This document shows positions 9,633 to 40,144 of a stretch of 64,000 nt of DNA, one piece after another. Below the pieces are notes generated by a model. The model had not been told where the DNA came from and made no database searches. It was given only the letters and a program-made list of their open reading frames with translations. The translations under genes were made by a program, and so were the position numbers. The DNA comes from a phage. The stretch's first letter is position 1; each line of letters starts with the position of its first letter. The stretch is from the sequence record PZ445437.1, one strand, 5' to 3'.

Positions 9633-9959
9633 TTATACCTTAGTAATTTTCAGGTCTGCAAATTTTTTCTTGCGTTGATTTTTCATGCGACGAATAGTTT
9701 TATCGGAAATTTCATGCTTTTGATAAGCTTTAGATTCTACACCAAAAGCTTTAACATCAAATTCTGACAAGATATATTGAACCAACAATTCACGGACAGT
9801 ATTGCGTCCAATCTTCTGATCATTCTGTTTCATCGTCTGATGAAGCTCTTTTTCCCATTTATCCAAAATTTGAGGAGTTACAATATCGCCTTTTTCTAGC
9901 AAAGAAACTACTTTATCATATGCGTAAGAATTAATGACGTTTTTAATTTGAATAGTCAT
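9633..9959 (-). CDS. hypothetical protein
   Basis: 108 aa ORF; hairpin 9998-10011 lies upstream. Confidence 0.4.
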   Translation of the reverse strand: MTIQIKNVINSYAYDKVVSLLEKGDIVTPQILDKWEKELHQTMKQNDQKIGRNTVRELLVQYILSEFDVKAFGVESKAYQKHEISDKTIRRMKNQRKKKFADLKITKV

Positions 9960-10011
9960 ACATTATCCTCAATTACGTTAAAATTTTATTATCCAAAAAG
10001 GGCCGAAGCCC

Positions 10012-10212
10012 TTAGCTAAACTTTTTGGCACCCTTCCAGCCTTCATACATCATTGCGGCTGATATTAATATTGCTCCTGAGCAACTTGAATATTTGTGAT
10101 TCCAAAACCAGTTTAGAAAAACTTCATCATCAATACCTTGGGCTATCATATTTTCAAAGAACTGACGACGAGATTCGGCAATTCGTTGTGATAATTTAGA
10201 TTCAGGATTCAT
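10012..10212 (-). CDS. hypothetical protein
   Basis: 66 aa ORF followed by a GGGCCGAAGCCC hairpin. Confidence 0.35.
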   Translation of the reverse strand: MNPESKLSQRIAESRRQFFENMIAQGIDDEVFLNWFWNHKYSSCSGAILISAAMMYEGWKGAKKFS

Positions 10213-17872: not shown

Positions 17873-18161
17873 ATCGGTGTTTGCAATGACGGCATTTATA
17901 ACGAAGAATACTAGTCTGCCAATGAACTAATTGTACCTGTTCAGTACCACATTTTGGGCAGTTCGGAACATTCTTAGAAGCCCTTTCGCGACGTTCAACC
18001 ATAACCATAATGGCATCCAAAGCAGGAGGTTTAAAGTCTAAATCGTCACAACCATGAATCTTTCCACGCATTTCCAGATCGTCTTCTTCACCAGTCATAA
18101 TAATTTTAATTAGACTAGAATTACTTGAAGCTGCAATGTCTTCTAATAGACGCTTTTTCAT
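17844..18161 (-). CDS. hypothetical zinc-ribbon protein
   Basis: 105 aa; CPKCG...CRHCKH (four-Cys zinc ribbon). Confidence 0.4.
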
Positions 18162-19087
18162 TTCAATACCTCAATAGCATTACGTAAACCATTTGCTTTT
18201 GCATTAAGAGCTTTTAACAGTTTGGTGTGTTCGGCAATCTGGGCTTCAACTTCAATCAAACGAGCATTGAGATATTCACGTTCTTCGCTCAGGTTATCAA
18301 CCTTTTCTACTTTAGGTTCTTTTACAACTTGCTTATATGTATTAGGGTTCTTCAGTTTAATTAGAATGCGTGAACTGTACAGCATTGAACCATTATCTTC
18401 GGTTTCGTCATACATTTCCACTACGTCCATCATCTCCACCATCGTGCAGAGTTTATAAGACAACGAACGAATAATTTTGTTGTGCTTATTAATTTCTCTA
18501 GCTGTCATGGTGCCGAGATTACGTGAGTAATAATAAGGAACCTGGATATTAATTAATACTGATAAACCACCTGGCTTGTGTGTTACTTCATCAGCAATAA
18601 CCCAATCCTTAACATGAACTGTATTTGTACGGTCATCGCCCGCGGTAAATAGTTTACGAGCATGCTTAAAAAGCATATTCACTTGGGTATTGAATTGACA
18701 AGCGAATTTATCAGCAAATTTAGTTTCGGGAATGGTAGATAACCAATCAGCTAAATGGGTCTTTTTAACATCGTTAACAATAGTAAATTCAACCAAATCG
18801 GTTATAGATGTCTCAGATTTAATGAAGCTCGGCTTCATAAAGTTTTTAATGTTATCACTAGCTACAGTAGAAGATAACAGACGAGAACGTTTAAACCATT
18901 GAAGCAAATTGCCTAACGAATGAGAATAAGCGTTTTGAGTATCTTTACAGATATGATTTTCCTGACCAACATATTGAAGGAAATCACGAAGAATATTATT
19001 GATTACTGCTCTGTGCCCGATCTGATAATTACGGTGTTTAGTAATAAGACTGTCAAAATAATCAATATAATGTTTACGAGTTTTCAT
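18158..19087 (-). CDS. hypothetical protein
   Basis: 309 aa ORF with C-terminal coiled coil; no motif recognised. Confidence 0.45.
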   Translation of the reverse strand: MKTRKHYIDYFDSLITKHRNYQIGHRAVINNILRDFLQYVGQENHICKDTQNAYSHSLGNLLQWFKRSRLLSSTVASDNIKNFMKPSFIKSETSITDLVEFTIVNDVKKTHLADWLSTIPETKFADKFACQFNTQVNMLFKHARKLFTAGDDRTNTVHVKDWVIADEVTHKPGGLSVLINIQVPYYYSRNLGTMTAREINKHNKIIRSLSYKLCTMVEMMDVVEMYDETEDNGSMLYSSRILIKLKNPNTYKQVVKEPKVEKVDNLSEEREYLNARLIEVEAQIAEHTKLLKALNAKANGLRNAIEVLK

Positions 19088-21479: not shown

Positions 21480-22493
21480 TCATTTATAATAACTTCGGTG
21501 GTTTTCAAGATAGACCTTCTCAAGGAAGTCATCCCAGAAACTCATGTCTACTGTTTTAGGCATACCGTTCTTAGAAGCTTCAGTAGATGCTGCTTCTACT
21601 TGATCGACCACATCTTCCAAAAACTCTTGAACTGTTTTAAATGGATGTTTACCCAACTTCACGTCGAGAATAAATGGAGCATCTTGAAGTGGATAGACTA
21701 AGTCACCAGTTTTGTAAATTTCCAATAGTTGGAGTCCACCACGACAAGCATGACTCAAAGCTTTCCAGTCAATACCTTCATTGGCTTCAGCCTTACGAGC
21801 ACGTTCACCGTATTCAGCATCTAATTTGTTCAGTGACTGCTTAAGCTCAATAAGAGAAAGCGTTGTCTGATATTTACGACCCAACACTGTGTAAAACGTC
21901 TGTGGGCCTGTTTTCTCATGATTATGGAACACCCATTCACAGAATTCGTTTTCTGGAAGACGATGCTTAATATCTTCAACTTTAGTACGACGCTGCTTAA
22001 TGGAACCGTCTTCTTGGTAATCAACCCATTGCTCAGGGATTTGATTAACTACTTTCAATACATCGCGTAATGCAGCCAAACGAGAACCCTTGACACCGTA
22101 TTTAGAAGCTTGCTTGCGGACATATCCTAAATAGGATTTCATGTTAGTCGTATAAAAACGAGAACGGTTGTCTTGAATAAACTTCCACACATCAGGCAAA
22201 TCAGATTTAACCACTAGTTCAGGTGGAGTGTGAAGCATATCCAATGCTACAGTTTCACCATCTGCTGCTAATTTAAAGAAATATTTAAGACTGTATAGTT
22301 CATGGTCAATATCATCTTTAGTGTTTTTAGATGATGTGTTGTTAGTGTTTTTACTCATGTGCTCTTTGACATTTCCGATAAGAATATCACGAGCAGGAGG
22401 AACAAAAATTTCTTTAAAATCTACATCAGATTCTGGGGTAGAAGTTCCATAAAGATGACTACCAAAATAGCTTTTCATTACTGTTTTCATCAT
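21480..22493 (-). CDS. putative pol-beta-superfamily nucleotidyltransferase-like protein
   Basis: 337 aa; N-terminal GSHLYGTSTPESDVDF fits the GS-x(9-13)-DxD nucleotidyltransferase signature; the rest is unassigned. Confidence 0.45.
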   Translation of the reverse strand: MMKTVMKSYFGSHLYGTSTPESDVDFKEIFVPPARDILIGNVKEHMSKNTNNTSSKNTKDDIDHELYSLKYFFKLAADGETVALDMLHTPPELVVKSDLPDVWKFIQDNRSRFYTTNMKSYLGYVRKQASKYGVKGSRLAALRDVLKVVNQIPEQWVDYQEDGSIKQRRTKVEDIKHRLPENEFCEWVFHNHEKTGPQTFYTVLGRKYQTTLSLIELKQSLNKLDAEYGERARKAEANEGIDWKALSHACRGGLQLLEIYKTGDLVYPLQDAPFILDVKLGKHPFKTVQEFLEDVVDQVEAASTEASKNGMPKTVDMSFWDDFLEKVYLENHRSYYK

Positions 22494-22663
22494 TCAGCCT
22501 TATATTCAATAACAGGACATACTTTAGCTTTACGAGCTTTTAAAAATTCAACGATAATCGATTTCTTGGGTTGAATAGGAGGTAAACCTTTATACGCCCT
22601 ATCAATATTTTCTATGTGTAAAGCATAATCCTTTTTTCCATTTATAATCTTTATATTTTTCAT
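22490..22663 (-). CDS. hypothetical small protein
   Basis: ORF 22490..22789 trimmed to an internal Met; stop overlaps the downstream start (ATGA). Confidence 0.3.
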   Translation of the reverse strand: MKNIKIINGKKDYALHIENIDRAYKGLPPIQPKKSIIVEFLKARKAKVCPVIEYKAE

Positions 22664-22952
22664 GCAAATGTGCAGGAATAACAAATGAACCGATAATAAG
22701 TAAAACAACCAAAAGCGCAAGTATAAATGCTGATGGAAGAAGAGTCCATAAACTACCGAAAATAAGCCAACGTTGTAGGCTTTCTGCACAAATAATTGTT
22801 AGCCCTACGAGTATAGCACATCCAAAAATAGAAACGAAAAATGTAGGAATGGCAATAGACCAAAAATATGCGCATAGTGTCTTAGGTCGTTGCCATTCAT
22901 CGTTAAACAATTTGAATAATTTATAGTGCCAAGCGTTTTCATTAATAATCAT
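22602..22952 (-). CDS. membrane protein (about 3 TM segments)
   Basis: 116 aa with three long hydrophobic stretches. Confidence 0.45.
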   Translation of the reverse strand: MIINENAWHYKLFKLFNDEWQRPKTLCAYFWSIAIPTFFVSIFGCAILVGLTIICAESLQRWLIFGSLWTLLPSAFILALLVVLLIIGSFVIPAHLHEKYKDYKWKKGLCFTHRKY

Positions 22953-25617: not shown

Positions 25618-25835
25618 GTCACCTTTAAGCAGTATTCTTCTACATGCTGTTTACGACCTTTCTTATCAATAAAGGTATATTCAACGAATGTTCCAATGTA
25701 GTCTTTATCTACATCATGTGGACTATTAATTGGACATTTAGTACGGCAAATGCGTTCCCATTGACGAATAATTACTGCCTTATTCTTTGGGTCATACGGA
25801 TGTGGATAATGTATATTCATAATAACGGTTCCCAA
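25608..25835 (-). CDS. hypothetical protein
   Basis: 75 aa ORF. Confidence 0.4.
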   Translation of the reverse strand: MGTVIMNIHYPHPYDPKNKAVIIRQWERICRTKCPINSPHDVDKDYIGTFVEYTFIDKKGRKQHVEEYCLKVTWL

Positions 25836-26284
25836 TCAACAATCACAATTTCTAATTTAGAGGAATATGTATCTAAAATCCCCTCAATAATATCCCAGTT
25901 CCCTTTACCTATGCCTGCACCAATCCTAGGCATATAGATTGTAGGTTTAATCAGTTTATTTTCACCAAACTCATTTAATTCTAACATACAATTCATTAAA
26001 GCGGAATACTCAAAATTTGGCCCCGGTTGAAATTGAGTATAAAGATTGAAGCAGTAAGCTTTATGAGTCCTAAAGTATTTTTCATAGACTGAGTAAGAAC
26101 CGAGTTTAGTTACATCGCCCCATTCTGTCTGTAATTTATCAGCTTCCAAAATTTTAGGGAAAGCTTTGGTTAATTGACCCGCTACGCCTGAACCCATAGT
26201 ATGAAAACAATTGCATCCATGCGCAATATTTTTACCTTCAGCGAAAAGGGCGACAATATCGCCCTTGATATATTTTACAATCAT
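25817..26284 (-). CDS. macro domain protein (putative ADP-ribose binding/hydrolase)
   Basis: 155 aa; GDIVALFAEG..IAHGCNCFHTMGSGVAG and later IGAGIGKG, resembling macrodomain nucleotide-binding loops. Confidence 0.55.
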   Translation of the reverse strand: MIVKYIKGDIVALFAEGKNIAHGCNCFHTMGSGVAGQLTKAFPKILEADKLQTEWGDVTKLGSYSVYEKYFRTHKAYCFNLYTQFQPGPNFEYSALMNCMLELNEFGENKLIKPTIYMPRIGAGIGKGNWDIIEGILDTYSSKLEIVIVDWEPLL

Positions 26285-26628: not shown

Positions 26629-27166
26629 TTACTATTTCCAAAAGTTTATTATTTTTAAGGTAATTAGCCTTTTCTAGGACTTCAGAAGCATATTTAGAAC
26701 CTGCTTTAACATTCCATCCCGAATTATAAGAGGATATTGCTTTTCTTATATCGCCCTTATGTATATTTAACCAATAAGAAAGTTCAATGTACGCCCAGGA
26801 AGCTGAATTGGATCGTTTATTCAACATTCTTTTTATTTCAGCATCAGTCATATTATAACCAAGTTCCTTAACTCTCGCTCGCATAGTAGGCAAATAATTT
26901 TGGAACATTCCATAAGCGTGATGCTTTGGTTTAGATTTTAAATTAACTCCGCCAGAGCTTTCTTGCCATAAAATGGCTGCCATTATATGACCTAATCCGC
27001 TCTTGTGGATATTTTTATGTGTTTTATATTTTCCATCCTTAGAAAATTGTTCCCCGAATTGATACGCGTAACGCATGTTATCGAGTTGGACATTACTGAA
27101 AGTATGCTCGGAGCTATGTGCCATCATTGAAATGGCCAATAGACCAGCGAGTAGTGCTTTTCTCAT
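26621..27166 (-). CDS. secreted lytic-transglycosylase-like protein
   Basis: 181 aa; signal-peptide-like N-terminus; LWQESSGG and YGMFQ resemble lytic transglycosylase catalytic motifs. Confidence 0.5.
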   Translation of the reverse strand: MRKALLAGLLAISMMAHSSEHTFSNVQLDNMRYAYQFGEQFSKDGKYKTHKNIHKSGLGHIMAAILWQESSGGVNLKSKPKHHAYGMFQNYLPTMRARVKELGYNMTDAEIKRMLNKRSNSASWAYIELSYWLNIHKGDIRKAISSYNSGWNVKAGSKYASEVLEKANYLKNNKLLEIVND

Positions 27167-27173
27167 GCTTACC

Positions 27174-27635
27174 TCATTGAGTTTTAATTACTGCTTTAGA
27201 AGCCTTTCCTGGTAAACGACGACTGTTAATAATTGCCATCCTACATTGAAGTGACGGGTCTTTGAACTTCTCGTTAGGTTTACAAACTGTAAATCCAAGC
27301 CAAAGATTTCCATCTGTGATTTCTAAACGTCCAGGACGATATTCAACCCCATCAATAAAATCCTCGTCAATGTCAGGACGCGGAGGCATACTCAGGAATT
27401 CATTAACTTCTAAAACATGGTCTTTTATTTTATGGAATAATTCAAAAACATATGTCTCATCAATCTCCCGCTGAATTGCGCGATCAAGAAGATGCTGAGA
27501 ATATTTTAGATGAAACGATGAGACCCCTGCTGCTTTTGATGCCTCACGAATCTCATTGTTAATTTGACGAAACTCCGACTCAAAGTGACGACGAAGCTTA
27601 TTTCGACGAATAAAAACTTCTGTATTGATAGTCAT
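27174..27635 (-). CDS. regB: endoribonuclease RegB
   Basis: 153 aa; sequence and position consistent with T4 RegB; RBS AAGAGGAGAA and early promoter upstream. Confidence 0.75.
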   Translation of the reverse strand: MTINTEVFIRRNKLRRHFESEFRQINNEIREASKAAGVSSFHLKYSQHLLDRAIQREIDETYVFELFHKIKDHVLEVNEFLSMPPRPDIDEDFIDGVEYRPGRLEITDGNLWLGFTVCKPNEKFKDPSLQCRMAIINSRRLPGKASKAVIKTQ

Positions 27636-27662
27636 GTTGTTCTCCTCTTAACTGATAGAAAA

Positions 27663-27692
27663 ATTATACCACAGTCAAGAGGAAAAGTAAAC
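27663..27692 (-). promoter_or_regulatory. T4-type early promoter upstream of regB (-35 GTTTAC, extended -10 TGGTATAAT)
   Basis: Minus-strand GTTTAC at 27687-27692 and TGGTATAAT at 27663-27671. Confidence 0.6.
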
Positions 27693-27694
27693 AG

Positions 27695-28015
27695 TTATTC
27701 TTTAAATCTAATCAATTTATTCATAGACTTTGAAACTTCTGCACGAACCTCATGTAGATTTTTGAGCTGTTCAAGACGCTGCGTATAGTAAGCAATTTCA
27801 TCTTCTTCGAGACAGTCCTGCGAATCTTCTTTAAGATAACGTGCATAGTCCTGAAAAGCGTTACGGATTACTTCCTGGAAGTCATCAAGACTTTGAATTT
27901 TCTTAGGAGCAGCAGATACACGACAAGGGGCAGTATAATACTCATAACCAAACCCTGCGCTTAATTGAGCCATTAGTATTTTTCCTCTGGTTGGAACACT
28001 GCACGACAAGCCCAC
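27695..28015 (-). CDS. hypothetical protein
   Basis: 106 aa ORF, start uncertain. Confidence 0.4.
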
Positions 28016-28275
28016 ATACTGGCTTCTTTGAGTTTCGTTTTAGCAATAGTTAACTGATCGAGGCTTTCGGCGTAATTCTTCGCGAGTTCATCATCTTCAC
28101 AGCTATCAAATGCTTCCCAAAATTCATCGTATAAAGCATCAAAGATAAGTCCTAAACGAACTTCAGCGTCTTTAATAGCATTTACTTTACCGATTTTTTC
28201 GTCGGTATGTGGCTTATAACCTTTAATATCTTCAATCATATTTGACTTCCTCACCAGTACATAAATCGTATTCAA
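27973..28275 (-). CDS. hypothetical small protein; by synteny a candidate Vs.4/Acb2-like anti-CBASS sponge
   Basis: 100 aa ORF three genes upstream of regB; assignment rests on recalled T4 gene order only. Confidence 0.3.
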
Positions 28276-28453
28276 CTAAACGAATAGGTTCATGAATGCC
28301 ATATCCCTGAACAGAAATTTCTGTAGTAGGATAAATTCCATTAATATCACCCATGTTCCATGCTTCGTTAAATTGCTGTTCGCCTGAATTACTAAACCAT
28401 TCGGCGAAAGCATTTAGCACATCTTCAGAACCTTCAATAATTATCTTTGCCAT
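28232..28453 (-). CDS. hypothetical protein
   Basis: 73 aa acidic ORF. Confidence 0.4.
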   Translation of the reverse strand: MAKIIIEGSEDVLNAFAEWFSNSGEQQFNEAWNMGDINGIYPTTEISVQGYGIHEPIRLVEYDLCTGEEVKYD

Positions 28454-28815
28454 TACAAACTCTCGGTAAAGGTACGAGCGATAACGTCGCGCTGCTGTTC
28501 CGGAGTCAGAGAGTTAAAGCGAACTGCATAACCGGATACACGGATGGTCAGCTGCGGATATTTTTCCGGATGCTTAACTGCATCTTCCAGAGTTTCGCGA
28601 CGCAGAACGTTAACGTTCAGGTGTTGACCACCTTCAATTTTAACTGTAGGCTGTTGCTCAATTTCAATTTCACGGGCATGCAAACCGTAGAAAATTTCTG
28701 GGTCTACAAAAGAGTCCTCTTTAAAGGTTTTGGAGACAATAATTCGTGCTTGAATACCATCTTCAAAATAAATAGTACCTTTATGTGTGCCTTCAAGAAT
28801 TTGATATGCTTTCAT
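28453..28815 (-). CDS. GrcA/YfiD-like autonomous glycyl radical cofactor
   Basis: 120 aa; C-terminal RVSGYAVRF glycyl-radical motif in a small stand-alone protein. Confidence 0.75.
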
Positions 28816-28822
28816 ATAAACC

Positions 28823-29203
28823 TCAATTAGAAAATAAATTTATCCAAGATTGTTCTTTAATTAAAAATGGCTCAGAATCATATGCCATTAAACTTTGCGT
28901 AATTAATCCTTTAAAAGGTCCATCAATAAATTCCATGGTAAAATATGGAATTTTATTCATTAGCCGTGCATTAGGAGCAGTGCACAAAACTCTGCATCCT
29001 TTGAATACGCCTTTTTGTAATTTGTATTGCTTAGGATAAAATTCACTTAAAATGTTATTTTTTGCCAAAATTTCAAAATGATTCACCAATTTATTTTTAA
29101 TAGTTTTTGGTGAAAAATAAAGATACTCGAAAAGTTGCGCATCTGTCATCATTGCATTCCGATTACGAAAAACTGCGGACGAGTAATACCACCAATGCAA
29201 CAT
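28823..29203 (-). CDS. hypothetical protein
   Basis: 126 aa ORF; start probably internal. Confidence 0.35.
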
Positions 29204-29736
29204 TTACTATTACAGCAGTAGTGTACAGTGTCAATATGGACACTATAAATCTTATCCATATCAGGAGATTTGACAGGCTCATCAATTATATACAAAATTC
29301 GCGAAAGCGATAAACCTCTGAACTTGCTTCCTTTATTACCAATAAAACTGCGCACAGAATCAGTAAATAAACGAAAACGTATATCATCATTAGAATAACG
29401 CGAAAATTCCTTTTTAATGTTATTTGCAGAAATTTTAGCGTAAGCTGAAGTATTAGAAAGAACAATAACTGTTCCGCCATCATACAGCCAATTAGCAGCA
29501 AAGTTAGTCACAGCAATTGATTTACCAGATTGACGTCCACCGTCTAGTCGAAGTGTGCAGTACTGTTTAAGTAATTCTTCAAATGGCGGGATATATTCGT
29601 TTTTACAAATTTCTTCTACTCTAGCATCAGAATGGTGTGTAAAAGCATTCATCAGGGATAGATAAGGACCAGTTAAAAATGTTCTCATTTTCTTCTCTCT
29701 AAGTTTGGGCCATTCCATGGCGCATGAATTGTCCAT
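29149..29736 (-). CDS. P-loop NTPase-like protein
   Basis: 195 aa; Walker A-like GGRQSGKS and Walker B-like LYIIDEP. Confidence 0.45.
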   Translation of the reverse strand: MDNSCAMEWPKLREKKMRTFLTGPYLSLMNAFTHHSDARVEEICKNEYIPPFEELLKQYCTLRLDGGRQSGKSIAVTNFAANWLYDGGTVIVLSNTSAYAKISANNIKKEFSRYSNDDIRFRLFTDSVRSFIGNKGSKFRGLSLSRILYIIDEPVKSPDMDKIYSVHIDTVHYCCNSKCCIGGITRPQFFVIGMQ

Positions 29737-29829
29737 TTCTGTATTTACCCATTACCGCACTTGGGCTCGACCTTATTACAGGTTGGCGGGAATCCCTCAC
29801 AGAATCATGAGGTCCAGGTTGTTCCCATA

Positions 29830-30303
29830 TTATTTGAACGATTTAACGTACTGAATAGAACCTTTACTATTCACAAAGGCAATTTTACCATTTTTGTTAT
29901 ACATGGTAGCAGTACGTTGATAGCCATAAGTTTGTTTACCAGATTGATAACCAACTAATGCAAAATTATCTTCACCCATTTTATTCTGTTTAGCGCGAAT
30001 GCGTTCATGGCCATGTGCCATAAGAACCTTAGCATCACCTGTTGCAATGGATCGACGAGTTTTTTCATCTTCAACTGTATTAACAAAGTCGTCAAATGAA
30101 TCAAATTTAGCATGAGATTTATTATACAGTTTTCCATCTACTGCATAATTATATCCTTGTACATCCATCTCAACTTCTGTACCATCATCCAGTACAGCAG
30201 TGATTTTCTGTCCTTTTTTAAATTTCAAAAGATCAGTAAAAGATTCAGCAATAATTTGAGAATTAATAGTTGCTTCAGTAATAAATTCTTGATATGTTTT
30301 CAT
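29830..30303 (-). CDS. internal-protein-like protein with prohead-protease capsid-targeting sequence
   Basis: 157 aa; starts MKTYQEFITEA, the conserved capsid-targeting N-terminus of T-even internal proteins. Confidence 0.6.
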   Translation of the reverse strand: MKTYQEFITEATINSQIIAESFTDLLKFKKGQKITAVLDDGTEVEMDVQGYNYAVDGKLYNKSHAKFDSFDDFVNTVEDEKTRRSIATGDAKVLMAHGHERIRAKQNKMGEDNFALVGYQSGKQTYGYQRTATMYNKNGKIAFVNSKGSIQYVKSFK

Positions 30304-30363
30304 GTGTATCCTTTAAATGTAAATATTTTAATTAATAATTTGGCTCTTCAAGTAACTGTGAAT

Positions 30364-30393
30364 ATACTATCACAATTCTAGGAGAAAGTAAAC
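30364..30393 (-). promoter_or_regulatory. T4-type early promoter (-35 GTTTAC, -10 TGATAGTAT)
   Basis: Minus-strand GTTTAC at 30388-30393 and TAGTAT at 30364-30369. Confidence 0.5.
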
Positions 30394-30397
30394 AACT

Positions 30398-31366
<969 letters not shown>

Positions 31367-34260: not shown

Positions 34261-34524
34261 TTATTTCATATTATTGAAATATTCTTCTGCGATTTCGTCG
34301 TTATCATGGTAAACTTTAGAAGACAGTTTAACATAACTTTCAGCAGTGAACATGTTAATCACAACCTTTACAGTATACCACTGACCATCTTCATTACCCA
34401 TTACTGCGTAAGTTTCAAACATCGGATGATCAGGACCGATAACTTTAATATCATTCACTGTACGACCAAAATCTTCTGAAACACATTTCATAAAGAAGTT
34501 GAACAGTTCGCCGTAATTATCCAT
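34261..34524 (-). CDS. hypothetical protein
   Basis: Start moved to MDNYGELF (ATG 34524, RBS GGAGAA) because the longer ORF overlaps the promoter. Confidence 0.4.
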   Translation of the reverse strand: MDNYGELFNFFMKCVSEDFGRTVNDIKVIGPDHPMFETYAVMGNEDGQWYTVKVVINMFTAESYVKLSSKVYHDNDEIAEEYFNNMK

Positions 34525-34567
34525 TTCATTCTCCAAGTTGTTTTCTGTATCAGTAGTTGATAGTTGT

Positions 34568-34597
34568 ATAGTACCATGGAAGGACAAGGATGTAAAC
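34568..34597 (-). promoter_or_regulatory. T4-type early promoter (-35 GTTTAC, -10 TGGTACTAT)
   Basis: Minus-strand GTTTAC at 34592-34597 and TACTAT at 34568-34573. Confidence 0.55.
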
Positions 34598-34739
34598 CGT
34601 TTTGTGAAAAAATTTTTAAAAAGTTTTGGGGAATTCTAGGGCAGGGAGGGGAAATCAAAGGATAGGATAATATATTATAAAGGGTAGAAACTAAATGATG
34701 TCTAGAGAGGCCTGGAAAGGCCTAGATACCAAAAAGCCC

Positions 34740-34763
34740 CAACCTTTCGGCTAGGGCTAAGAA
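34740..34763 (-). terminator. rho-independent terminator (hairpin AGCCCTAGCCGAAAGGTTGGGGCT followed by TTTTT on the minus strand)
   Basis: Inverted repeat with GAAA loop and U-tract immediately 3' of the 34766 ORF. Confidence 0.6.
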
Positions 34764-34765
34764 TG

Positions 34766-35239
34766 TTATTTGATTTGTTTAGCAGACCAAATGCGGTCTT
34801 TAATAATTTTTTGGATGTCTTCAACATACTCAAGAGAGTGAGCATGTGGGTTATCTTTGAAACTATAAGCACGAGCTAGCTTTTGGCCTTCAGTTTTGAT
34901 TACTAAAAGCTCTTTAAGGATAGCTTCATATTTGGAGATAATTCCTTTAACGATATTTTTCTCTTGCGTGACTTTAGGATCTGCTTTAGGAGCAGGTTTA
35001 CCTGAAGCCTTTGCAAAAGCAGCTCCAGTAGCAACTAAACTTTTCCAAGCCATACTAACTGCATTCCCTGTAAATCCTTCGGCTTTCATATCACGAGCAA
35101 ATTGGAATCGTGATTCATCGGAAGCATCTTTATAGGAATATTTACCCGCGGCAATGGCTGCTTTTGCGACAGCTTGAATTTCGGTGCTAGATGCTTCATT
35201 TAACACCGCTTCATTTAAAAATTGAGCATATGATTTCAT
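34766..35239 (-). CDS. internal-protein-like protein with divergent capsid-targeting sequence
   Basis: 157 aa; N-terminus MKSYAQFLNEA resembles the MKTYQEFIAEA motif; Ala/Lys-rich. Confidence 0.5.
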   Translation of the reverse strand: MKSYAQFLNEAVLNEASSTEIQAVAKAAIAAGKYSYKDASDESRFQFARDMKAEGFTGNAVSMAWKSLVATGAAFAKASGKPAPKADPKVTQEKNIVKGIISKYEAILKELLVIKTEGQKLARAYSFKDNPHAHSLEYVEDIQKIIKDRIWSAKQIK

Positions 35240-35288
35240 CTTATTTCCTGTTTTAATTTGTGGTTTTAATATACTTATTTATACTAAA

Positions 35289-35312
35289 AAGCCCCAACCT
35301 TTCGGCTGGGGC
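35289..35312 (-). terminator. rho-independent terminator (near-identical copy of the 34740 hairpin)
   Basis: AGCCCCAGCCGAAAGGTTGGGGCT followed by TTTTT on the minus strand. Confidence 0.6.
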
Positions 35313-35620
35313 TAAGCCTTGCGGCAACCTTGTCGGGGTTCCACCTGCTAAGGCAAGTGTTTGTACGAAACGCCGGGATTCGAACCCGGTTATCAAGCAG
35401 TTGACGCTACTCAATATTTTTAAAAGGCCATATCTCGACCATATCCGAACGTTCCGTCAAAAACGCTACTCGGCTTACGGCAAAGATATTTCCTCGAATC
35501 GATAATTCGGTGCGCCGTTTCTGCTGTGATATAAGGGGACATTAACAAAACATAAAGATTTATTAATGCCAGTCCTTAAACAGGGAACATCAGTCCGACG
35601 ACTTACCGGTAGCGACCCGG
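35313..35620 (-). ncRNA. candidate small stable RNA(s) with a tRNA-like T-arm
   Basis: Non-coding 300-nt stretch between a minus-strand ORF and a terminator; contains CCGGGTTCGAATCCCGG on the minus strand; no complete cloverleaf found. Confidence 0.35.
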
Positions 35621-35624
35621 TTTC

Positions 35625-35975
35625 TTAATATTCTTTTAAAGCATCAATCTGTTCACGGCGTTTACGCCATAAATCAATTGCTTCATACACAGATTCAGCA
35701 TTTCGAATTAGCCGGCATTTATGTAAAGACTTATGATTTTGATATTGTGTAGATAATGGAATTGTATCTAAAAGGTCTTTACGATCAAAGTATTCGTAAC
35801 CATCTAAACCAAATGAACGATTTTTGAGAAATTGCCAATGGCCAAATTCATTTTCAACATAAACATAATCTGCATGCTGATAAAGTAAATTAATTACACG
35901 TTCAGAAATAGCAGTATCATTATGATTAAAATAGAATGTTAAATCATGAACTACTAAATAAACATTACCTTTCAT
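35625..35975 (-). CDS. hypothetical protein
   Basis: 116 aa ORF immediately downstream of tRNA-Arg. Confidence 0.4.
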   Translation of the reverse strand: MKGNVYLVVHDLTFYFNHNDTAISERVINLLYQHADYVYVENEFGHWQFLKNRSFGLDGYEYFDRKDLLDTIPLSTQYQNHKSLHKCRLIRNAESVYEAIDLWRKRREQIDALKEY

Positions 35976-35993
35976 ATTTTCCTCACTTATAAT

Positions 35994-36069
35994 TGGTCGA
36001 GGCAGTAGGGATCGAACCTACGACCTAGGACTTAGAAGGTCCTTGCTCTTCCTTCTGAGCTATGCCCCG
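35994..36069 (-). tRNA. tRNA-Arg (anticodon UCU)
   Basis: Cloverleaf folded by hand: acceptor CGGGGCA/TGCCTCG, anticodon loop CUUCUAA, T-arm GGTTCGATCC, encoded CCA. Confidence 0.8.
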
Positions 36070-36073
36070 TAAT

Positions 36074-36149
36074 TGGGGTGACCGATGGGAGTCGAACCCA
36101 TGACTACGAGAATCACAATCTCGAGTTCTACCAACTGAACTACGGCCAC
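36074..36149 (-). tRNA. tRNA-His (anticodon GUG)
   Basis: Acceptor GTGGCCG/CGGTCAC, anticodon loop TTGTGAT, discriminator C, encoded CCA. Confidence 0.65.
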
Positions 36150-36263
36150 ATTAATACCTACTCCAACAATCAAGATGTCTTCACACGAAATTAAGAGAAG
36201 AGTGATCAGTTCAACCCCTATAATCGCGTCAAGTAGATATTAATGTGACAGTTGTCACAAATT

Positions 36264-36338
36264 TGGCGGACGTGATAGGATTCGAACCTATAACCAATCG
36301 CTTAACAGGCGATCGCTCTGCCATTGAGCTACACATCC
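36264..36338 (-). tRNA. tRNA-Asn (anticodon GUU)
   Basis: Acceptor GGATGTG/CACGTCC, D-arm GCTC/GAGC, anticodon loop CTGTTAA, encoded CCA. Confidence 0.7.
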
Positions 36339-36342
36339 AAAT

Positions 36343-36429
36343 TGGTGGGGAGTGATGGAGTCGAACCACCCGAGTCGCAATGACAATGGATTTACAGTCC
36401 ACACCGCTACCTCTACGGGATAACTCCCC
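36343..36429 (-). tRNA. tRNA-Tyr (anticodon GUA), class II with long variable arm
   Basis: Acceptor GGGGAGT/ACTCCCC, anticodon loop CTGTAAA, 15-nt variable arm, encoded CCA. Confidence 0.65.
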
Positions 36430-36438
36430 AAATTAATT

Positions 36439-36513
36439 TGGTGGCCCTGGGTGGAATTGAACCACCATCTGGCGATTATGAGTCGCTTGCTTGAACCTTC
36501 CAGCTACAGGGCC
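36439..36513 (-). tRNA. tRNA with anticodon CAU (Ile via lysidine, as in T4, or Met)
   Basis: Acceptor GGCCCTG/CAGGGCC, anticodon loop CTCATAA, encoded CCA. Confidence 0.7.
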
Positions 36514-36514
36514 T

Positions 36515-36590
36515 TGGTGCTGATTGACGGAATCGAACCGCCGACCTTCTCATTACAAGTGAGTTGCTCTACCTACTGAGCTAAATCAGC
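36515..36590 (-). tRNA. tRNA-Thr (anticodon UGU)
   Basis: Acceptor GCTGATT/AATCAGC, anticodon loop CTTGTAA, encoded CCA. Confidence 0.8.
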
Positions 36591-36595
36591 AAAAC

Positions 36596-36685
36596 TGGCG
36601 GAGGCGATAGGATTTGAACCTATGAGTCGCCGGAGCGACTGCCGGTTTTCAAGACCGGTGCATTAAACCACTCTGCCACGCCTCC
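36596..36685 (-). tRNA. tRNA-Ser (anticodon UGA), class II
   Basis: Acceptor GGAGGCG/CGCCTCC, anticodon stem-loop CCGGT-CTTGAAA-ACCGG, long variable arm, encoded CCA. Confidence 0.8.
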
Positions 36686-36691
36686 AAATAT

Positions 36692-37300
36692 TTATATATT
36701 GTTAATTTGATTTAGAATTCTTTTTGCTTGAGTATGACTTACGCCAATATGCTTAGCATATTTAGATAATTCACCACGCTTAGAAAAATCATATAATTTA
36801 GAAATTTCTATTCTTCTTTTTCTTTCATCCACAGAAACTTTTGCTTCGTTTGCTTTTGCTATTTTACGTTTAGCTTCTTGAGAATGAGTTTTACCAGCAA
36901 AGCCATTCTTCATTAATCCATTTGAAGACCATCCTTTTAATTTTCCGTTAGAATGTGCCTTTTTAACACCCAATGAAATTAATTCGCGTTGCTGGTCTGT
37001 CATAGGATAATTATTTATATGATCCCATCCACCTTCACCGCCAAGTTTTAAATTATACACATCTGGTCTATTTAAAAACTCTTCTGTAACAATATTTTTC
37101 TCGGCTTCAAGCATAGATTCTTTATCATCAAAATACTCTAATATTTCTTTAGAAAAATTTTCTATACCATACTTATCTTGGGCTCTTTTTAATAATTTAC
37201 CAGAACCCATATATCCATCATCTAAATTTTCGGTAGAATGCACACCAATATAAATTTTATTATTAATTTTATTTGTTATTTTATAAAGATAAAAATGCAT
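36692..37300 (-). CDS. segB: GIY-YIG homing endonuclease SegB-like, inside the tRNA cluster
   Basis: ORF 36692..37342; MHFYLYKITNKINNKIYIGVH GIY-YIG-type motif plus NUMOD-like C-terminus; start at the internal Met is preferred because the longer ORF abuts tRNA-Gly. Confidence 0.65.
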   Translation of the reverse strand: MHFYLYKITNKINNKIYIGVHSTENLDDGYMGSGKLLKRAQDKYGIENFSKEILEYFDDKESMLEAEKNIVTEEFLNRPDVYNLKLGGEGGWDHINNYPMTDQQRELISLGVKKAHSNGKLKGWSSNGLMKNGFAGKTHSQEAKRKIAKANEAKVSVDERKRRIEISKLYDFSKRGELSKYAKHIGVSHTQAKRILNQINNI

Positions 37301-37346
37301 ATCAGTCCCTAATAAAGAACTGAGCGTCTCACGACGAGTCATAAAT

Positions 37347-37420
<74 letters not shown>

Positions 37421-37425
37421 AAATT

Positions 37426-37512
37426 TGGTGCGAGAAGTGGGACTCGAACCCACAAGGAAATCATTCCGCAGCATTTTAAGTGCTGTGCCTTTACCAATTT
37501 GACCATTCTCGC
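37426..37512 (-). tRNA. tRNA-Leu (anticodon UAA), class II
   Basis: Acceptor GCGAGAA/TTCTCGC, anticodon stem-loop CAGCA-CTTAAAA-TGCTG, encoded CCA; 1 nt from tRNA-Gln. Confidence 0.8.
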
Positions 37513-37513
37513 G

Positions 37514-37586
37514 CTGGGAATAAAGGACTCGAACCTTTGCATCCTGGAATCAAAATCCAGTGCCTTACCAACTTGGCTAATTCCCA
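37514..37586 (-). tRNA. tRNA-Gln (anticodon UUG)
   Basis: Acceptor TGGGAAT/ATTCCCA, anticodon stem-loop CTGGA-TTTTGAT-TCCAG; CCA not encoded. Confidence 0.8.
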
Positions 37587-37672
37587 ATTATTAACAAAGG
37601 CTCTCAAGCAAGAACCCTTGATGATAGAGGGTATTAATCAGTGCGGTATGAGTTAATAATAACAAATAATTC

Positions 37673-38188
37673 TTAAAGCAAATTAAACATTTTAACAGTC
37701 GGCAAAACAATTTCTTTTTCTATATAAGAGTATTTAACACTCTCAACTACGCGCAGAAAATCATAATCATAATATTCAGAAGCACTGCCTAAAATATTAA
37801 TAAGTCCTTCAAGCACTTTATTACCATTCACAAAGAATAAGTCAAATACACGTTCTTCATCTTCTTCAGATTTATTACCAAGGTCAACTTCTATATCAAA
37901 GACCTTTTTAATGAATTCTGGATAAAGCTGGTCTGAGAACAGTCCTTCAACCAAGTATTCATAGATAAAAAGCGATTGCTCGCTGAACAAGCCATTACCA
38001 CAATAACGTTCAGCTTTAGTACTAGAATGTCTACTTTTAAACTTCTTTAAAAGATATTGAAATTGTAAGATTTCATGCTCTTCTACGCCAAACAGTGTTT
38101 TAGTTTTATAGTTGTCACCATCATTTTCCCAGGTAGTGACATCAATTACGTAACCCTGTGGAATTGTAGTACCTAAACAAATATTCAT
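37673..38188 (-). CDS. hypothetical protein
   Basis: 171 aa ORF upstream of the tRNA cluster. Confidence 0.45.
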   Translation of the reverse strand: MNICLGTTIPQGYVIDVTTWENDGDNYKTKTLFGVEEHEILQFQYLLKKFKSRHSSTKAERYCGNGLFSEQSLFIYEYLVEGLFSDQLYPEFIKKVFDIEVDLGNKSEEDEERVFDLFFVNGNKVLEGLINILGSASEYYDYDFLRVVESVKYSYIEKEIVLPTVKMFNLL

Positions 38189-38478
38189 TTGCTCACCATA
38201 TTAATGTAAGTATATTCAATACATTCAAGACCCAAAGGATTCTTGAAAATATCATATTCAAGAGGACCTTTTTCCGTTTCAATAAAGAAATCAAAATTTA
38301 CTGTATTAAATTTACGGTCTTCCTTCACTAATTTAACCTGAGAAGATGAACGGTCAATGTAAACCTTTTCAACTTCAAAACATGTTAAAATGCCATAATC
38401 ATCAATCAAGGCTTTAGCTGCTTCTTGATCATATTTATATCCATTTTCAATGGATGATACTTTAGCATAAAGAATCAT
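38185..38478 (-). CDS. hypothetical protein
   Basis: 97 aa ORF, stop overlaps downstream start. Confidence 0.4.
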   Translation of the reverse strand: MILYAKVSSIENGYKYDQEAAKALIDDYGILTCFEVEKVYIDRSSSQVKLVKEDRKFNTVNFDFFIETEKGPLEYDIFKNPLGLECIEYTYINMVSK

Positions 38479-38480
38479 TA

Positions 38481-38891
38481 TCAGCCTCTATCAACGATAG
38501 CATGAGTATGGGCATTTACGATTTGCCACCAGTCGAAACGATTGGAACCATAATCTGGTTTATTTTCATTTTCTTTAATGATATCACGCAACTTATCTTC
38601 TGTTTCAGCATACGCAATTAAATCATCATATCCACCGCAAGGATAATAATTATCACCTGCGAATAAAAGAAAATTTACCTTAGATGGATTTACGTAATAA
38701 TGGTCTTTAGGATATTTAGTTCCTCTCCAATCAGTTACTTCAACATAACGGTAAGAAAATCCATTTTTACTTTCAATCCAACTCCACGCTTCAAAAGGAG
38801 TATTAAAAACTTTATCAGGTATTAAATTACCTTCAAAATGAGAAGGATTTGCATAATCCCCGGCATAAACATAATATTCGTTAATACTCAT
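38481..38891 (-). CDS. hypothetical protein
   Basis: 136 aa ORF, aromatic-rich. Confidence 0.45.
   Translation of the reverse strand: MSINEYYVYAGDYANPSHFEGNLIPDKVFNTPFEAWSWIESKNGFSYRYVEVTDWRGTKYPKDHYYVNPSKVNFLLFAGDNYYPCGGYDDLIAYAETEDKLRDIIKENENKPDYGSNRFDWWQIVNAHTHAIVDRG

Positions 38892-39447: not shown

Positions 39448-40144
<697 letters not shown>

Follow-up and report, generated by a model that had tools for sequence, protein, structure and literature searches.

An intact T4-like acb2 gene and an interrupted acb1 gene in the Escherichia phage Bas43

The genes described here lie in a 64,000-nucleotide stretch of phage DNA (hereafter the window), which is from Escherichia phage TadeuszReichstein (BASEL Bas43; MZ501106). 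The locus of interest is a tightly packed run of minus-strand genes, regB, vs.3, vs.4, vs.5 and vs.6, in which vs.4 overlaps each neighbour at a start or stop codon. Two of these genes anchor the order by Pfam profiles: regB (27174–27635) encodes the endoribonuclease (REGB_T4, 230.8 bits) and vs.6 (28453–28815) a GrcA-like glycyl-radical protein (Gly_radical, 67 bits), confirming the arrangement on which the original prediction of a vs.4 gene was based. The ATG of vs.3 (27695–27973; PHROG 2037) shares one base with the TAA of vs.4 (a TAATG overlap), and the stop codon of vs.5 (28232–28453; PHROG 1986) overlaps vs.4 codons 2 and 3. Promoter and terminator counts across 27100–29900 equalled the shuffled expectation, and thus nothing can be said from them about dedicated regulation of the vs genes. 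Just upstream of the vs gene, a 155-residue Macro-domain protein (PF01661, 27.7 bits; 25817–26284, minus strand) is encoded, which could be an ADP-ribose-removing counter-defence enzyme.

The reading frame of vs.4 extends over 100 codons of the minus strand, opening with TTG (28275) and closing with TAA (27973–27975), and it was initially taken to specify a 100-residue protein. The frame is real, but its product is most likely 88 residues long, the length of T4 Vs.4, starting at an ATG (28239–28237) that sits 36 bases downstream of the TTG. A strong Shine-Dalgarno sequence read from the DNA (GAGGAAG, 28246–28252, minus strand) precedes this ATG with a spacing of 6 nt, whereas inspection of the sequence before the TTG found none. 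The same ATG is the annotated start in PhiZZ23, in T4 and Bas38 and in five homologues that are more distant; the N termini of the homologues all begin M-I/G/A-E/D-D in the alignment, and the RefSeq annotation of PhiZZ23 gives the same vs.4 coordinates. Because the Shine-Dalgarno sequence and the annotated starts of the homologues favour this ATG, we place the gene at 27973–28239 (88 codons plus TAA); the 12 codons that precede it (28240–28275, minus strand), which overlap the 3′ end of vs.5, are most likely untranslated as part of Vs.4.

The open reading frame at 27973–28239 is a T4-like vs.4/acb2 gene. In a phmmer search against PDB chains, the best match of its product is T4 Vs.4 (7UQ2; E = 3.6e-53; 84 identities over 89 aligned positions and an overall identity of 94%), and Acb2 of phage PaMx33 (8H2J; E = 0.04) is next in rank. 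The protein covers the full 58-position Pfam profile Acb2_Tad1_hairpin (PF24729; 70.4 bits, with a cut-off of 27) and matches PHROG 717 (E = 5.6e-32), the family by which Jenson et al. defined Vs.4 homologues (PMC10097602). PHROGs itself gives a family number only for Vs.4, without a function, and NCBIfam holds no model for Vs.4, Acb1, vs.3 or vs.5. From the single sequence, AlphaFold2 predicts with pLDDT 87 a hairpin of two helices (residues 11–45 and 50–81), for which Foldseek against the PDB again returns 7UQ2 at the top (E = 8e-10, TM 0.74), followed by the Acb2 entries 8H2X and 8H2J. The original assignment had been made by gene order alone and was to be abandoned if neither sequence nor structure resembled Acb2; the alignment and the structure prediction proposed as checks both came out positive, and the resemblance is clear at both levels. 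Homologues of vs.4 were found by tblastn in 1,242 phage records (59 at 100% identity), so the frame is not a chance one, and most GenBank records still label its product "hypothetical protein".

The Acb2 protein of the window differs from T4 Vs.4 by five substitutions (E13D, L44F, N46S, C50D and F52L), and the alignment shows no change at any of the 18 residues mapped functionally in T4. These are the residues that stack on or hydrogen-bond to cGAMP (Y8, F82, H11, K23, R79 and S74), the helix cap T12 and the hexamer-interface residues L29, F33, A66, A73 and A77 (PMC10097602), as well as Y37, A57, L60, D61 and T64, which in T4 Acb2 close off the pocket used for cA3 (PMC10312549), and T68, at which a change to M weakens binding (PMC12657230). 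The acb2 gene is intact in Bas43, as had been proposed. Eight columns (K6, G7, Y8, N20, K23, M75, R79 and P84) do not vary across nine homologues of 23–94% identity. Each of the five substitutions lies in a variable column, four being at the tip of the hairpin, a region of differing length among homologues. Of the five states, three (F44, S46 and L52) recur in Acb2 of Bas38 (AugustSocin), which differs from the window's protein at residues 13 and 50 only and the expression of which activates Panoptes (PMC12657218). Most homologues have D at position 13; both D13 and D50 are absent from the assayed T4 and Bas38 proteins.

Because the mapped residues are kept, the changes lie in variable columns, several states are shared with Bas38 and the allele occurs in 59 records, we infer from the sequence that the protein is a working cyclic-dinucleotide sponge that would bind 3′3′-cGAMP tightly without cleaving it. 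T4 Acb2 binds 3′3′-cGAMP at about 30–84 nM, and does not bind cA3 or cAAG (PMC10097602, PMC10312549); for 2′3′-c-di-AMP the corresponding T4 value is 62 nM. With all five hexamer-interface residues retained, the protein probably forms a hexamer. Binding of cyclic trinucleotides would not be expected, by analogy with the characterized proteins, since the sequence departs from the trinucleotide signature of the PaMx33/JBD67 type, which comprises equivalents of R67 and T74 and a kinked pocket helix: D61 occupies the position of R67 and the helix packing is of the T4 type (Y37, A57, L60 and T64), with T68 present.

The second gene of the pair, acb1 (gene 57B; 39448–39903, minus strand), lies directly after 57A and comprises 152 codons with one in-frame stop. 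Its read-through translation matches the Acb1 structure 7T26 (E = 4e-62) and the locus matches PHROG 755 (E = 5e-68). The Acb1 homologue is interrupted, as originally noted, by a TGA at codon 60 (39724–39726), which in relatives is GGA (Gly); on the plus strand, the alteration is at 39726, an A in place of the C of relatives. The remaining six differences from acb1 of PhiZZ23 are all synonymous, and only two bases, one of them making the stop, separate the gene from that of AV122, the closest relative found. Catalysis by Acb1 needs the tetrad H44/T46/H113/T115 (T4 numbering; PMC9117128). In the window, the first HxT motif (H43-S-T45) precedes the TGA and the second (H112-I-T114) follows it, so no single polypeptide carries both; the 59-residue N-terminal fragment (39724–39903, minus strand) is identical to GenBank QXV84986.1 (bas43_0260). 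We found by inspection no downstream start with a ribosome-binding site in acb1, and no opal suppressor among the 10 tRNAs of the tRNA cluster in the scanned stretch (34500–38500).

The genome carrying this stop was sequenced by Illumina NextSeq at 87x coverage, and the exact 59-residue Acb1 fragment is on record only from TadeuszReichstein. The stop is rare. Over the 61 nt around it, none of 479 matching phage records (a set that does not contain the Bas43 record MZ501106) is identical; the lack of an identical nucleotide match among phage records follows from the absence of MZ501106 from that collection. An exact search with a 35-mer of the TGA allele had no match in IMG/VR or JGI metagenomes, where the wild-type 35-mer used as a control was found, and none of 36 Acb1 loci in IMG/VR has an in-frame stop. 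The exact 88-residue Acb2, by contrast with the stop, is shared by 59 phage records, including Bas42 (AndreasVesalius) and Bas44 (AdolfPortmann), both of which have a full-length 152-residue acb1 product. Other apparent or actual lesions of the two genes were seen elsewhere. In OM339528.1 (phage 132) and MZ417521.1 (SV76), GenBank annotates only a 68-residue C-terminal "Acb1"; we rejected these as further interrupted alleles, given that the 152-codon frame (9752–10207) is intact in both, and such a short annotation is an artefact able to mimic a truncated gene. The reverse state occurs in IMGVR_UViG_2706796257_000001, a 158-kb T4-like contig in which vs.4/acb2 is frameshifted after codon 23 (about 18019–18296) and acb1 is intact. 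In three Logan read-set assemblies (SRR23190650, SRR23190655 and ERR10772828), acb1 is frameshifted by −1 within its A6 run (nt 118–123 of the gene) and gives a 51-residue product; the lesion may be real or an assembly error.

When the open reading frames of PhiZZ23 (at least 60 codons) were compared with the window, two gene lesions were found, the acb1 stop and a frameshift, and acb1 is the only annotated gene shared with PhiZZ23 that bears an in-frame stop. The frameshift lies on the minus strand in 22493–22952, where an A-run (about 22632–22637) has one additional A (A6, versus A5 in PhiZZ23 and relatives); it affects a 153-residue membrane-protein gene homologous to PhiZZ23 gp100 and yields a 116-residue product (QXV84947.1, bas43_0211), the exact protein again being on record only from TadeuszReichstein. 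Over 63 nt around the A-run, none of 417 phage records (MZ501106 not among them) is identical. Between tRNA-Ser (36596–36685) and tRNA-Gly (37347–37420) we observed a GIY-YIG/NUMOD3 homing-endonuclease gene (36692–37342, minus strand) at the exact site of tRNA-Pro in PhiZZ23. With the endonuclease gene at this position, the phage has 10 tRNAs and no tRNA-Pro. A single match covers at least 80% of the endonuclease stretch in 56 phage records, and those listed with tRNA annotation, such as Bas42, AV122 and AR1, have the same arrangement. The junction at 30304–30397, between an ipIII-like gene (29830–30303) and the lysozyme gene e (30398–30892), lacks the denV and ipII-like genes found in PhiZZ23; tblastn found no denV (endonuclease V) in the 64-kb window, and the denV-less junction is common to other T-even phages, for example vB_EcoM_112 and RB27.

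Both genes have a published context. Vs.4/Acb2 has been a characterized sponge since 2023 (PMC10097602). The nonsense mutation in Bas43 acb1 appears in Doherty et al. 2025 (Extended Data Fig. 7d; PMC12657230), who count Bas43 among three T4-like phages with natural resistance to type I Panoptes, and a 2026 study (PMC13577387) reports escape of Bas43 from type II Panoptes as well. According to that study, type II Panoptes guards a pool of cA3, is triggered by Acb1 and restricts relatives in which acb1 is intact; laboratory-derived escapers of Bas35 gain mutations in acb1. The interrupted acb1 is therefore an already published and phenotyped allele with a known selective reason for its loss, the same phage, the same lesion and the escape from Panoptes being described in the two articles (PMC12657230, PMC13577387). 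In the portions of these articles that were consulted, no statement on the intactness of acb2 in Bas43 was found. Bas42 and Bas44 are not named among the resistant T4-like phages in the text of PMC12657230, which suggests that they are sensitive to type I Panoptes. For T4, Sullivan et al. showed that Acb2 is both needed and sufficient for triggering type I Panoptes, and that deletion of acb1 has no effect (PMC12657218).

By analogy with T4 Vs.4, six copies of the two-helix hairpin would assemble into a hexamer with three pockets, each between two subunits and each able to clamp one cyclic dinucleotide. In this way 3′3′-cGAMP and related CBASS signals would be kept from the host effector and the infected cell spared self-killing, while cyclic trinucleotides would, as in T4, be left to the phosphodiesterase Acb1, the gene for which is cut at codon 60 in Bas43. 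Since acb2 is intact and no polypeptide has both HxT motifs, we predict that Bas43 keeps its cover against dinucleotide signals and has lost its cover against trinucleotide signals: Acb2 would protect it from cyclic-dinucleotide CBASS and, because Acb2 of the T4 type does not bind cA3 or cAAG and Acb1 is gone, the phage would be exposed to signalling by both. It would in turn escape guards that sense the activity of Acb1, such as type II Panoptes. We hold it very probable that this combination, with cover against dinucleotide CBASS kept, destruction of cAAA and cAAG lost and type II Panoptes escaped, is what the two genes confer.

Three other explanations bear on the parts of this reading. One concerns the start codon. 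Were the full 100-residue frame translated from the TTG at 28275, Acb2 would carry a 12-residue N-terminal extension; the frame is open from the TTG, but we rejected this start on the Shine-Dalgarno sequence of the ATG and the N termini of the homologues, eight of which, along with all annotations, begin at the ATG. The extension would also overlap vs.5, and Y8, which lies near the free N terminus, is part of the ligand pocket (PMC10097602), leaving the longer product with almost no chance of being the real one. Another is that the acb1 stop entails no functional loss, being either a sequencing error or a codon read through often enough to supply sufficient Acb1. The TGA is private among the 479 records (without MZ501106), and the window has a second private lesion, the additional A of the A-run. 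Termination at UGA is leaky, and relatively so when A follows, as here; a trace of full-length Acb1 may therefore be made. A sequencing error is nevertheless unlikely, and we discarded it, because the Bas43 genome has 87x Illumina coverage and the lesion is published with matching phenotypes: two independent laboratories report the nonsense mutation and the phenotype that goes with it (PMC12657230, PMC13577387). The scanned tRNA cluster also offers no suppressor, and acb1 stands alone in its in-frame stop among the annotated genes shared with PhiZZ23. We consider a harmless stop very unlikely.

The remaining explanation addresses a tension: Bas43 escapes type I Panoptes (PMC12657230, PMC13577387) despite an Acb2 of wild-type appearance, although the trigger in T4 is Acb2, with acb1 deletion irrelevant (PMC12657218). 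Taken alone, this escape could hint at weak activity or expression of Acb2 in Bas43. The five substitutions might have weakened or retuned the protein, for example by lowering its affinity for 2′3′-c-di-AMP, in which case both anti-CBASS proteins would be impaired; a single substitution, T68M in Bas35, suffices to lower affinity and weaken Acb2 (PMC12657230). However, the five changes spare all mapped ligand and interface residues and are all in variable columns. The exact allele is found in 59 records; among them are Bas42 and Bas44, neither of which that article lists as resistant, and F44, S46 and L52 occur in the active Bas38 protein, D13 being the majority state. A weakened Acb2 thus seems improbable to us, to about the same degree as a harmless acb1 stop. 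Returning to a functional Acb2, we can offer, tentatively and as a rather doubtful extension, that in some phage–Panoptes pairings Acb1 and Acb2 are jointly needed to deplete the decoy 2′3′-c-di-AMP sufficiently, or that Acb2 is poorly expressed in Bas43; either way, the loss of acb1 would be adaptive, keeping the cover against dinucleotide CBASS while evading both Panoptes guards. Another difference between the phages is also a possible source of the type I escape.

The acb2/acb1 gene pair is already known: the sponge is a known protein, its allele is widespread and the acb1 lesion is published, the broken gene having been described with its phenotype since 2025 (PMC12657230). What is added here is the Bas43 genotype, in which Acb2 is intact and predicted to act on dinucleotides only and Acb1 is null. 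As this case confirms, gene order in a T4-like genome can lead correctly to an anti-defence gene. Bas43 and Bas42/Bas44 form a natural pair, with the same Acb2 and with acb1 interrupted in the one and intact in the others, for studying the overlap of sponge and nuclease against di- and trinucleotide CBASS, and the pair also suits the question of how Acb1 and Acb2 each trigger Panoptes.

Among known systems, PaMx33 Acb2 (a Pseudomonas phage protein; 8H2J and 8H2X; PMC10312549) resembles the window's protein in its hairpin fold (TM about 0.71) and in its ligand pair Y11/K26, equivalent to Y8/K23 here; it is only about 23% identical, however, and uses R67 and T74 to bind cA3 and cAAG as well. The read-through frame of acb1 resembles T4 Acb1 (57B) and FBB1 Acb1 (7T26; PMC9117128) in having both HxT motifs and its place after 57A, but the TGA leaves a 59-residue fragment with the first motif only. 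The Citrobacter phage PhiZZ23 is 100% identical over 27600–28900; we nonetheless ruled out that the window is PhiZZ23, as the rest is a mosaic of 92–99.8% identity and denV is missing. Bas42 and Bas44 have a 100% identical Acb2 but, unlike Bas43, a full-length acb1. The published Bas43 genotype is the same phage with the same lesion, its truncated product being exactly bas43_0260. The nearest characterized relative of the sponge is T4 Vs.4/Acb2 (7UQ2; Jenson et al. 2023, PMC10097602), which is likewise 88 residues long, is encoded at the same place with vs.3 and vs.5 on either side, is 94% identical and shares every mapped cGAMP-binding, hexamer-interface and trinucleotide-excluding residue, differing in the five substitutions, four of which cluster at the hairpin tip, away from the ligand pocket.
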